Sequence record: PV683228.1
Direction: 5' to 3' (one strand)
Source of the DNA: Escherichia phage EcF-vB
Length of the DNA: 64,000 bases
The position numbers and the translations under genes are program-made. The notes beneath the pieces were generated by a model. The model made no database searches. It saw only the letters and a program-made list of their open reading frames with translations, and was not told the DNA's origin. This document shows, piece after piece, positions 43,747-45,162 of the stretch; the stretch's first letter is position 1; each line of letters begins with the position of its first letter.

Positions 43747-45162
43747 TTACCAGATATAACGGTCAATCATTACTGCTTTGAGCATTACGCTGATTGGGTC
43801 AAACTTCTCACCACCAAGCAGAGCTTTTAAAGTGGCTGGAGAGAAACCAGATACCATTGCTACACCGTTATCCTTAACAGACACTTCGCAAGTACCATTA
43901 CGGTTTGCTAAGTACCAGAATACCAGTTGTGGCATCTCATATCCAGCTTTTTTGTACTTGCTCTGAATTGCTTCAAAGTTTGTACGACCGTTAGCTCCAT
44001 CAACCTGATTGAACTCCATATCGGAGAAGATGATAAGCTTACTTGGCATATCTTTCTGAGTCAAGTTATTTCTTTTACCTGTCTCAAGAATGCGGTCAAA
44101 AGCTGCTTGTAAGTTAGTTGAGCCATATTCAACGTGTCGCATCACCTGACGATGACGGTTTCGTAAATCACCACTCAGTTCAATGAAATGAGGGTTTGTT
44201 GAATAAACCATTAACTCGTTCTTAAAGCAACCTGTATTGCGTTCTGCTACATACAAAGCAAGTGATACACCAATATCAAGAGCCGTGATTGAACCAAGAT
44301 TCACCCAAGACATTGAGCTTGAGACATCAGTCATACACAAGATGTTCTCACCTTCTGCCATCCAGTTTGGTAGTGCTTTCCACTGCTCATTAGCAACATC
44401 TGCATTACCGTGCTTGATAGACTTAATCACATCGTATGGGTAAACAGCACCAGCGTTAATCTTAGTCTCACCTTTTGATAAAGACTCGATGTAAGCTTTG
44501 TAGCGTTCTCCATCTTTACGGTTAAACAGTTTTTGGTAACGTGCAGCAGCAAGTGAAGGAATCTTACTGTAGTCAATCTTACCAAACTCATTAGCAGAGA
44601 TTTTTTGCTCAACTGTATCAGATAGTGCAGACAACAGTGTACGGTACTCTTTCTCACTCAGGTTGGCAAATTTGCAGAAACGTTTTACAAACTGTTTATG
44701 ACGTGGTTTTACTCGTGGTAACCACTTAGCTGCCAAACCTGCTGTTGCAGGGTCTAGTAATGCTGCTTCTAAATGTTTGAAGGCATCTGTCTCAAAACGA
44801 GTACCTACGAAGATTTTAAAGTCATCAAAACGACCAAGTTCTGCAATCTTATCCATAATGCGAAGAACCTGTGTAGGCTCTAAAACTTTATCTTCAATCG
44901 CTTGAAGCAAAACAGTTCTGAAGGCTTTACGCTCACCCATACCTTCTCGTACATCTCGCATATGCAGTAAAATACGAACTGCAACATCAACATCCTCACG
45001 CAAAGCTTTGTAGAACAGGTCTGGTAAGATTTCTACATTGCTACGGCTTGAACCAGCAGCTTTGTAAAAGTCTACAAGAGCAGACATTGATGAAGTATGG
45101 TTTACAGCACCATTTTCAGTTCGACCTGCATGAAGGTGCGCATGTTTAAATAATTCGCTCAT
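43747..45162 (-). CDS. Ro60-like protein: helical N-terminal (TROVE-like) domain plus von Willebrand A domain
   Basis: 471 aa; vWA MIDAS residues DVSSS...GSTN...FSDME in C-terminal half; N-terminal helical region; sits at the head of the tRNA array. Confidence 0.5.
   Translation of the reverse strand: MSELFKHAHLHAGRTENGAVNHTSSMSALVDFYKAAGSSRSNVEILPDLFYKALREDVDVAVRILLHMRDVREGMGERKAFRTVLLQAIEDKVLEPTQVLRIMDKIAELGRFDDFKIFVGTRFETDAFKHLEAALLDPATAGLAAKWLPRVKPRHKQFVKRFCKFANLSEKEYRTLLSALSDTVEQKISANEFGKIDYSKIPSLAAARYQKLFNRKDGERYKAYIESLSKGETKINAGAVYPYDVIKSIKHGNADVANEQWKALPNWMAEGENILCMTDVSSSMSWVNLGSITALDIGVSLALYVAERNTGCFKNELMVYSTNPHFIELSGDLRNRHRQVMRHVEYGSTNLQAAFDRILETGKRNNLTQKDMPSKLIIFSDMEFNQVDGANGRTNFEAIQSKYKKAGYEMPQLVFWYLANRNGTCEVSVKDNGVAMVSGFSPATLKALLGGEKFDPISVMLKAVMIDRYIW

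Follow-up and report, generated by a model that had tools for sequence, protein, structure and literature searches.

A phage protein with a predicted Ro60 fold and a family of CAGCAA-type RNAs linked to its gene

We analyzed 64,000 nucleotides of Escherichia phage EcF-vB (sequence record PV683228.1; this whole stretch is hereafter called the window), focusing on a gene for a 471-aa protein that stands at the head of a tRNA array. In its predicted structure, the protein has the fold of the RNA-binding protein Ro60, and by sequence it belongs to a different family, DUF2828. Past its stop codon, in the tRNA spacers, lie four stem-closed RNA modules (E1 to E4) that carry a CAGCAA motif. A covariance model of such modules locates them, without exception on the gene strand, beside DUF2828 genes at about 100 independent loci of viruses, bacteria, and archaea. 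We consider it rather probable that the Ro60-fold protein works as a ribonucleoprotein (RNP) with the phage RNAs E1 to E4, which would protect the phage by acting on RNA or on enzymes of RNA handling. The protein side is already published for gp130, the orthologous protein of phage Bas63; what appears to be new here is the RNA side.

The predicted protein structure is that of Ro60, in a separate sequence family

An earlier note, made from the letters of the sequence alone, had described the gene product as Ro60-like (TROVE plus vWA), with a helical domain of about 270 aa ahead of a von Willebrand A (vWA) domain with a complete MIDAS (metal ion-dependent adhesion site). All pieces of the MIDAS can indeed be read in the translation (DVSSS at aa 279–283, GSTN at 347–350, and FSDME at 379–383), and the key residues D279, S281, S283, T349, S380, and D381 are invariant in an alignment of 36 family sequences that are 40–89% identical (alignment A1). 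The AlphaFold model (predicted local distance difference test score, 88; predicted template modeling score, 0.88) is all-helical up to about aa 263, in agreement with the helical domain read earlier, and continues as an alpha/beta vWA domain. It thus shows the helical-repeat ring closed by a C-terminal vWA domain that defines the Ro60 fold. In a Foldseek comparison, the eight best PDB matches were all Ro60/TROVE proteins aligned over the whole chain (E 3e-8 to 3e-6), at a sequence identity of 10–16%; the next-best structural matches were Midasin, integrins, and Ku80.

The sequence places the protein elsewhere. Pfam assigns it DUF2828 (1.7e-29, 103.4 bits, cut-off 29) followed by DUF7788 (2.3e-43, 148.5 bits, cut-off 27.1), and the TROVE profile (PF05731) had no match in it at E ≤ 1, the N-terminal domain being matched by DUF2828 only. 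The architecture proposed by the earlier note was therefore borne out by structure, with Ro60 as the top match, whereas its TROVE label has to be replaced by DUF2828/DUF7788. PHROG 850, “RNA-binding protein”, matches the full length (6e-184). Single-sequence and profile searches of PDB sequences with the DUF2828 protein returned nothing significant; the best match of the family profile (E 0.27) fell on the DxSxS motif of 9L5Y/9KOP. Since the likeness to Ro60 is found by structure and none is found by sequence, the 471-aa protein is, as modeled, a Ro60-fold protein (a HEAT-repeat ring plus vWA/MIDAS) of a sequence family separate from TROVE Ro60. The low identity to Ro60 and the missing TROVE match would also suit an explanation in which nothing beyond the fold is shared, the function of the protein is unrelated to RNA, and the linked RNA serves another factor; set beside the whole-chain matches and the RNA linkage described below, we regard this as very improbable.

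The DUF2828 plus DUF7788 pair also occurs in a mycobacteriophage “Ro-like RNA binding protein” and in a Listeria phage homolog; mycobacteriophage proteins under that annotation belong to the DUF2828 family, not to TROVE. Overall, the family is present in 709 phage records, and more than 2,500 protein clusters match it among the candidates scored. PADLOC had no match for the 471-aa protein or for its upstream neighbor.

Four stem-closed RNA modules lie in the tRNA spacers

The earlier note had placed the gene co-oriented with and directly upstream of about 27 tRNA genes, with Y RNA genes expected nearby. Strand and position are correct, with tRNA-Pro, the first tRNA of the array, 165 nt past the stop codon, whereas the count by ARAGORN is 26. 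The expected Y RNAs did not appear as such (no Rfam Y RNA or YrlA match at E ≤ 1 in 37000–47000), but four stem-closed RNAs with a CAGCAA motif did (Table 1). The sequence AGAAGACCNNWTMCAGCAA occurs in four copies on the gene strand within 1.1 kb past the stop codon, against 0.07 expected (43393–43411, 43226–43244, 42810–42828, and 42723–42741), and GGUCUGG follows each copy after 40–110 nt. Each module is closed by a 7-bp terminal stem; CAGCAA comes immediately behind the 5′ strand, the interior varies, and the 3′ side has a CUG. The closing helix is common to all four folds, and its outer 4-bp pairs differ between them (UGAC/GUCA, UUGC/GCAA, GAGC/GCUC, and UUAC/GUAA); inward of it, all four have a small internal loop, an inner helix AGACCNN/NNGGUCU, and the single-stranded CAGCAA.

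Three of the modules, E1 to E3, are short (about 65–80 nt). The fourth, E4, is a long form whose interior reads V hairpin, T arm (GAAGGUUCGAUUCCUUC), closed acceptor-like hairpin, and D arm (GUGUAAUGGUAGCAC), and ARAGORN does not call it as a tRNA. The tRNA-like fragments mentioned in the earlier note are thus real, this T arm, closed hairpin, and D arm at about 42605–42749 being the clearest. Taken together, the observation behind that note is confirmed and its interpretation is partly supported.

The modules are conserved, with compensatory changes, in Felix O1, SUSP2, Sf17, Bas63, and relatives in IMG/VR. For example, the outer stem of E2 changes from UUGC/GCAA to UUAC/GUAA in Felix O1 (G-C to A-U), and the acceptor hairpin of E4 changes from ACUCG/CGAGU to ACACG/CGUGU in SUSP2 and Sf17. 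E4 is present in about 245 Ounavirinae records, mostly unannotated; some public records call it “tRNA-OTHER” or “tRNA-Thr”, or overlay it with small open reading frames (ORFs). In Bas63 (MZ501086, L090:20749-21023), the antisense coding sequences bas63_0137 and bas63_0138 (“hypothetical protein”) are annotated across E3/E4. Such coding-sequence and tRNA calls on E3/E4 are probably mis-annotated RNA genes, and knockout data for “genes” of the bas63_0137/bas63_0138 type would in effect probe the RNAs. If so, hundreds of Felix O1-like genome annotations, in which the RNAs are unannotated, called pseudo-tRNAs, or lie under spurious ORFs, would be corrected.

The RNA family accompanies DUF2828 genes

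We scanned 90 DUF2828 loci (920 kb; individual loci carry L numbers below) with a pattern consisting of a 7-nt stem, 2–4 nt, CAGCAA, 20–140 nt, and the perfect complement of the stem. The gene strand had 154 matches and its complement 30; Markov-shuffled sequences gave 26. With a 6-nt stem, a module lies within 1.2 kb of the gene in 73 of the 90 loci. At L015, where the protein is 47% identical, the modules have other stem sequences and the same UUCAGCAA motif. The arrangement varies: three modules lie just past the stop codon in Mycobacterium phage Samty, three just ahead of the start in Listeria phage LMTA-34, two just ahead of the start in Campylobacter phage F374, five (three with a 7-nt stem) downstream of the stop in Klebsiella phage phi1_175008, and seven upstream of the start in Aeromonas phage 4_4572.

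A covariance model (R1) was then built on a nearly gap-free MAFFT alignment (A2) of 34 short modules. CAGCAA is invariant in A2; the G that opens the stem (G7) and the C and G of the 3′ CUG, none of which had served as selection criteria, are conserved at ≥90%. In the window, R1 recovered E1 to E3, matches in an inverted copy of the locus (see below), and a partial E4, with nothing else under E 0.1. On 81 viral loci, all 88 matches were on the gene strand; at E ≤ 0.01, the gene itself contained none of the 64 matches, and 56 of them were no farther than 500 nt from its ends. The model matched 29 of 61 viral loci that had contributed no seed sequence. Bacterial and archaeal assemblies supplied a further 80 independent loci, 38 of which had matches, 60 in total and every one on the gene strand. 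At the locus of the canonical TROVE Ro60 of phage phiLo, R1 had no match. Among 66 non-seed matches, all seven stem pairs vary on both sides, and 99.1% of stem cells are paired, against 62% in shuffled sequences and 29–49% with the partner slid, figures obtained on sequences that had either been aligned by fitting to the model or been chosen for their pairing.

Transfer RNAs were found within 5 kb, all co-oriented, in 27 of 60 sampled viral loci, and loci with no tRNA inside that distance have modules beside the gene as well (for example, L018, L020, L023, and L025). The tie is therefore to the gene, tRNA arrays being frequent and not obligatory. This bears on the possibility that the modules are cis elements, either processing signals of tRNA precursors or leaders and terminators regulating the DUF2828 gene, rather than free small RNAs. 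The window modules do occupy tRNA spacers, and many loci have a single module 20–60 nt past the stop codon or just ahead of the start, as cis elements might. Nevertheless, modules occur upstream or downstream of the gene, in one to seven copies (seven at L009), with or without nearby tRNAs; the terminator search at the modules found none, and they lack a U tract; and many contain a complete tRNA-like domain that has no obvious use in cis. A cis role is accordingly improbable in our estimate.

Long modules from different lineages share the organization of E4: 10 of 12 read T arm, a closed hairpin of 6–9 bp, 1–2 nt, and D arm, the stem sequences being entirely different. These orders were read from individual folds; when the long modules were aligned with MAFFT, RNAalifold recovered the T arm alone, because their loop lengths differ. 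Many of the short modules in A2 carry a looser interior element, approximately GC(N)UAUAGAAA(A)C, and between it and the 3′ stem an A-rich run (for example, L006:4756-4814, L008:4551-4602, and L009:2139-2192).

Neither in the literature nor in Rfam did we find the CAGCAA-type RNAs as a family, their YrlA-like long form, or their likeness to Class I RNAs (see below); they are apparently undescribed. The main text of a catalog of 10,006 viral structured RNAs mentions neither the CAGCAA motif nor DUF2828. The modules provide specific candidate Y-like RNAs for a second, very widespread Ro60-like family, together with a simple signature and a working covariance model.

Other RNA-related features were observed near some modules. 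About 1 kb upstream of the DUF2828 gene with its three modules in Listeria phage LMTA-34 (NC_042048), a stretch flanked by tRNA genes (L004:2428-2979) matches ROOL RNA at 88.5 bits, the gathering score being 99.1. The same 9 kb encode an RtcB-like “tRNA splicing ligase”, a “tRNA amidotransferase”, and a “ribosome associated inhibitor A; zinc finger domain” protein, so that the surroundings of this DUF2828 gene are a dense island of RNA-handling functions. The RtcB-type ligase lies 1.3 kb downstream, an arrangement that recalls the bacterial rsr-yrlA-rtcB operon. In a metagenomic viral contig, a segment about 170 nt downstream of the module (L059:6924-6978) matches the cyanobacterial sRNA NsiR1 at 37.7 bits, just short of the gathering score of 39.

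Relation to Y RNAs and to the anti-Ppl protein gp130

The 471-aa protein is 98–99.8% identical to proteins of Felixounavirus phages, and its orthologs include Felix O1 ORF42 (“RNA-binding protein”) and Bas63 gp130 (bas63_0130). The latter is identical at 465 of 471 residues, without gaps, and occupies the same position directly upstream of tRNA-Pro. For Bas63 (Escherichia phage JohannRWettstein), gp130 has been described as structurally similar to Ro60; it was noted to lie directly upstream of tRNA genes, and it was offered as speculation that “some tRNA genes are possibly Y RNAs” (PMC11482910). Deletion of gp130 cripples Bas63 on a host carrying Ppl, complementation restores the phage, and T7 is rescued on the Ppl strain by gp130 alone, whether supplied from a plasmid or carried by T7 itself (PMC11482910). 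With this 2024 preprint, the Ro60-like finding at the protein level is already in the literature. Judged by 99% identity and synteny, the protein of the window is the ortholog of this anti-Ppl protein, the phenotype itself being the published result for Bas63 gp130. In contrast to that study (PMC11482910), the candidate partner RNAs here are the spacer modules and not the annotated tRNAs.

The modules resemble the bacterial Y RNAs YrlA and YrlB in several respects. In both cases, a gene for a ring protein with a vWA/MIDAS domain has at least one small RNA encoded in the same orientation no more than a few hundred nt away; the two ends of the RNA pair into a closing stem, and a conserved motif lies on its 5′ strand or follows that strand (PMC4201824). 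The tRNA-like domain of YrlA runs V, T arm, closed acceptor, D arm (PMC4201824), and the permuted tRNA-like domain of E4 has this layout. The two differ in that the modules carry N-U-W-CAGCAA after the stem and lack a Ro-binding stem of the GNCGAAN0-1G or GGUCCGA type, and in that the DUF2828 protein belongs to another Pfam family than Ro60/Rsr. The Ro60 of Thermus phage phiLo (PMC12135203; PDB 9KOP, 9L5Y), unlike the DUF2828 protein, matches TROVE in Pfam, and its RNAs Yrl1 and Yrl2 carry a CGAA motif where the modules have CAGCAA (PMC12135203). The staphylococcal phage protein–RNA anti-CRISPR AcrIIIA1, which binds t(m)RNA fragments, was considered as a further parallel and set aside, as its paper draws no link to Ro60 or DUF2828.

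We infer that E1 to E4 are expressed and processed, bind the protein, and may contribute to counter-defense. In the mechanism that we propose, E1 to E4 would be transcribed together with the tRNA array and released as RNase P and the 3′ processing enzymes excise the flanking tRNAs. The predicted docking site for the protein would comprise the 7-bp terminal stem, the 5′ (A)AG, the 3′ CUG(U), and the single-stranded N-U-W-CAGCAA directly after the 5′ strand, and would be the counterpart of the Ro-binding stem of Y RNAs. To this, E4 would add its permuted tRNA-like domain as a handle, in the manner of YrlA with bacterial Rsr. The particle would shield the phage during infection by acting on RNA or on enzymes that handle RNA.

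Several observations weigh against an RNP of this kind. A sequence-level link of the DUF2828 protein to TROVE is absent in the Pfam and PDB sequence searches, and in an hhalign comparison of the family with the phiLo TROVE Ro60, the vWA domain alone aligns (probability 72%). No pattern-scan module lies within 1.2 kb of the gene in 17 of the 90 loci, 27 of the 81 viral loci have no R1 module at E ≤ 0.1, and the pairing statistics have the origin stated above. In addition, gp130 alone counters Ppl in T7 (PMC11482910), so that the anti-Ppl effect does not depend on phage RNAs, provided that RNAs of the host do not take their place. Rather than being required for the anti-Ppl phenotype, the RNAs may thus serve to regulate the protein, to retarget it, or to extend it.

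The result with T7 also invites the explanation that the protein is a stand-alone inhibitor, which blocks Ppl and perhaps other defenses by protein–protein contact, for instance through the MIDAS face of its vWA domain, the RNAs not being its ligands. gp130 alone restores T7 plaquing on the Ppl strain, with plating even above the no-defense control (PMC11482910), and vWA/MIDAS domains are classic protein-binding modules, as in the Midasin, integrins, and Ku80 found among the next structural matches. However, an inhibitor of this kind leaves unexplained why a specific structured RNA lies on the gene strand at about 100 independent loci of many phyla, and why a complete Ro60 ring has been retained. 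We therefore hold it to be unlikely as the whole explanation, noting that stand-alone inhibition and a role as an RNP are not mutually exclusive. With candidate RNAs at hand, the mechanism of a validated anti-defense protein becomes directly testable as an RNP question.

Likeness to the Class I RNAs of social amoebae

RF01414 was the sole non-tRNA Rfam family that recurred at the modules. Its members, the Class I RNAs, have a 5′ AAG, a 6-bp terminal stem of variable sequence and conserved pairing, and a 3′ CUGU whose C pairs with the 5′ G (PMC7919456). An 11-nt motif, CCUUACAGCAA, with invariant T3, C6, C9, A10, and A11, directly follows the 5′ strand, and the remainder is variable (PMC7919456). 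According to Kjellin et al. 2021, Class I RNAs are absent outside Dictyostelia (PMC7919456). In the window, RF01414 matched all four modules over the full length and on the correct strand (13.2–19.7 bits, with E1 at 19.7). Applied as a stated hypothesis to six other lineages, it had matches in nine modules only, the highest at 30.7 bits. All modules tested thus match over the full length and on the correct strand at 13–31 bits, all below the Rfam gathering score of 41.5 bits; six pass the recruitment threshold of Kjellin et al., 25 bits plus the stem (PMC7919456).

Compared directly with 37 curated D. discoideum Class I sequences, the modules show the defining Class I features: a 5′ (AA)G, a covarying terminal stem of 6–7 bp, (C)UUACAGCAA immediately adjoining the 5′ strand, an interior that varies and often ends A-rich, and, paired through its C with the 5′ G, a 3′ CUG(U). 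For example, DdR-21 reads G-UUGAC-CUUACAGCAA...AAGAAAA...GUCAA-CUG, and a module at L019 reads AAG-GAUAG-UUACAGCAA...ACAAAA-CUAUC-CUGU. Dictyostelium Class I RNAs often have UAAGAAAAC where the short phage modules carry their looser interior element. A profile of the phage modules, searched with nhmmer against 24 Class I RNAs in 2.3 Mb of decoys, retrieved eight real RNAs and no decoys, each match being weak (E 1–9).

The two also differ. The spacing from stem to CAGCAA is usually one nt shorter in the phage modules than in Class I RNAs. The modules lie in operons or tRNA arrays, or beside DUF2828 genes, in transcription units of bacterial type, whereas the amoebal Class I genes are dispersed and have a Dictyostelium upstream sequence element (DUSE) promoter about 60 nt upstream, which the phage modules lack. 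Furthermore, the known direct binder of Class I RNA in Dictyostelium is the RRM protein Rnp1A/CIBP.

The pull-down with DdR-21 contained Rnp1A/CIBP, GuaB, NdkC, and the uncharacterized DDB_G0281243 (PMC7919456). No description of the domain content of DDB_G0281243 was found in the literature, and we regard this protein as a candidate DUF2828 partner of Class I RNAs. DUF2828 proteins have been reported in plants and in mimivirus-like sequences, which makes a route into Amoebozoa plausible. Tentatively, and with more doubt than confidence, we suggest that DUF2828 and the CAGCAA RNAs may form an ancient RNP, sister to Ro60–Y RNA, with the Class I RNAs as its eukaryotic members and a DUF2828 protein as their missing partner. 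The likeness of the modules to Class I RNAs is a serious lead, not a result. If it reflects a shared protein partner, it would give a first mechanistic handle on an RNA class studied since 2004 and would overturn the idea that Class I RNAs are confined to social amoebae.

The locus, its inverted copy and neighboring features

The order DUF5681 gene, DUF2828 gene, and tRNA array is annotated in Felix O1, SUSP2, Sf17, and Bas63. The promoter-like sites between the stop codon and tRNA-Pro (Table 1) are possible start points of a transcript carrying the tRNAs and the small RNAs, a suggestion from consensus matching in a region where such matches are no more numerous than expected from shuffling.

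Table 1 Features of the window
Feature	Position	Strand	Remarks
Co-oriented upstream neighbor, 123 aa	45244..45615	-	Equivalent annotated DUF5681 in Felix O1; synteny kept across Ounavirinae
Sigma-70-like promoter match, TTGACA-18-TAAAGT	45202..45231	-	40 nt before start codon; consensus match only
Gene of predicted Ro60-fold protein (DUF2828 + DUF7788, intact MIDAS)	43747..45162	-	ATG start, 471 aa
Two promoter-like sites, stop codon to tRNA-Pro	43608..43728	-	Consensus matches only
Array of 26 tRNA genes with four modules embedded	38452..43581	-	ARAGORN
Module E1, short CAGCAA-type stem-closed RNA	43337..43413	-	tRNA-Glu/tRNA-Met spacer; R1 45.5 bits, E 4e-8
Module E2, short CAGCAA-type RNA	43183..43246	-	tRNA-Met/tRNA-Asn spacer; R1 43.3 bits; fold z-score -3.3
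Module E3, short CAGCAA-type RNA	42753..42830	-	tRNA-Asp/tRNA-Lys gap; R1 40.6 bits
Module E4, long form with permuted tRNA-like domain	~42605..42749	-	Motif, individual fold, partial R1 match
Second, inverted, damaged copy of DUF2828 gene	~61051..62216	+	Cut after about codon 389; indels
Inverted copies of E3 and E4	62320..62545	+	E1 and E2 lost in deletion

The window also holds a second, inverted, and damaged copy of the gene, which corrects the earlier note. Positions 53500–64000 are an inverted copy of 41150–52000, comprising the gene and the first part of the tRNA array; the two arms are 98–100% complementary, dropping to 88–89% near the center. Besides small indels, the copy lacks 1062 bp equivalent to 42934–43995, a loss that takes in the final 83 codons of the gene as well as E1, E2, and six tRNAs. 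Among public phage genomes, none runs across the turn-around point near 52246, and the inverted copy is probably a fold-back artifact of assembly.

Between E4 and tRNA-Lys, positions 42463–42600 (-) form a long hairpin with a 14-bp closing stem (-34.3 kcal/mol, z -2.9), which has neither the CAGCAA motif nor an Rfam match. Beside the endolysin gene, positions 47019–48152 (+) encode a 377-aa protein with three immunoglobulin-like tandem repeats of about 90 aa, of the pattern ITQQP...GYQWKKDG...YTCVV...VTVN. Equivalents of this gene in public relatives measure 885 bp where annotated “tail protein” and 1383 bp where annotated “immunoglobulin-like domain protein”, and these differing lengths indicate that the number of repeats varies between phages.

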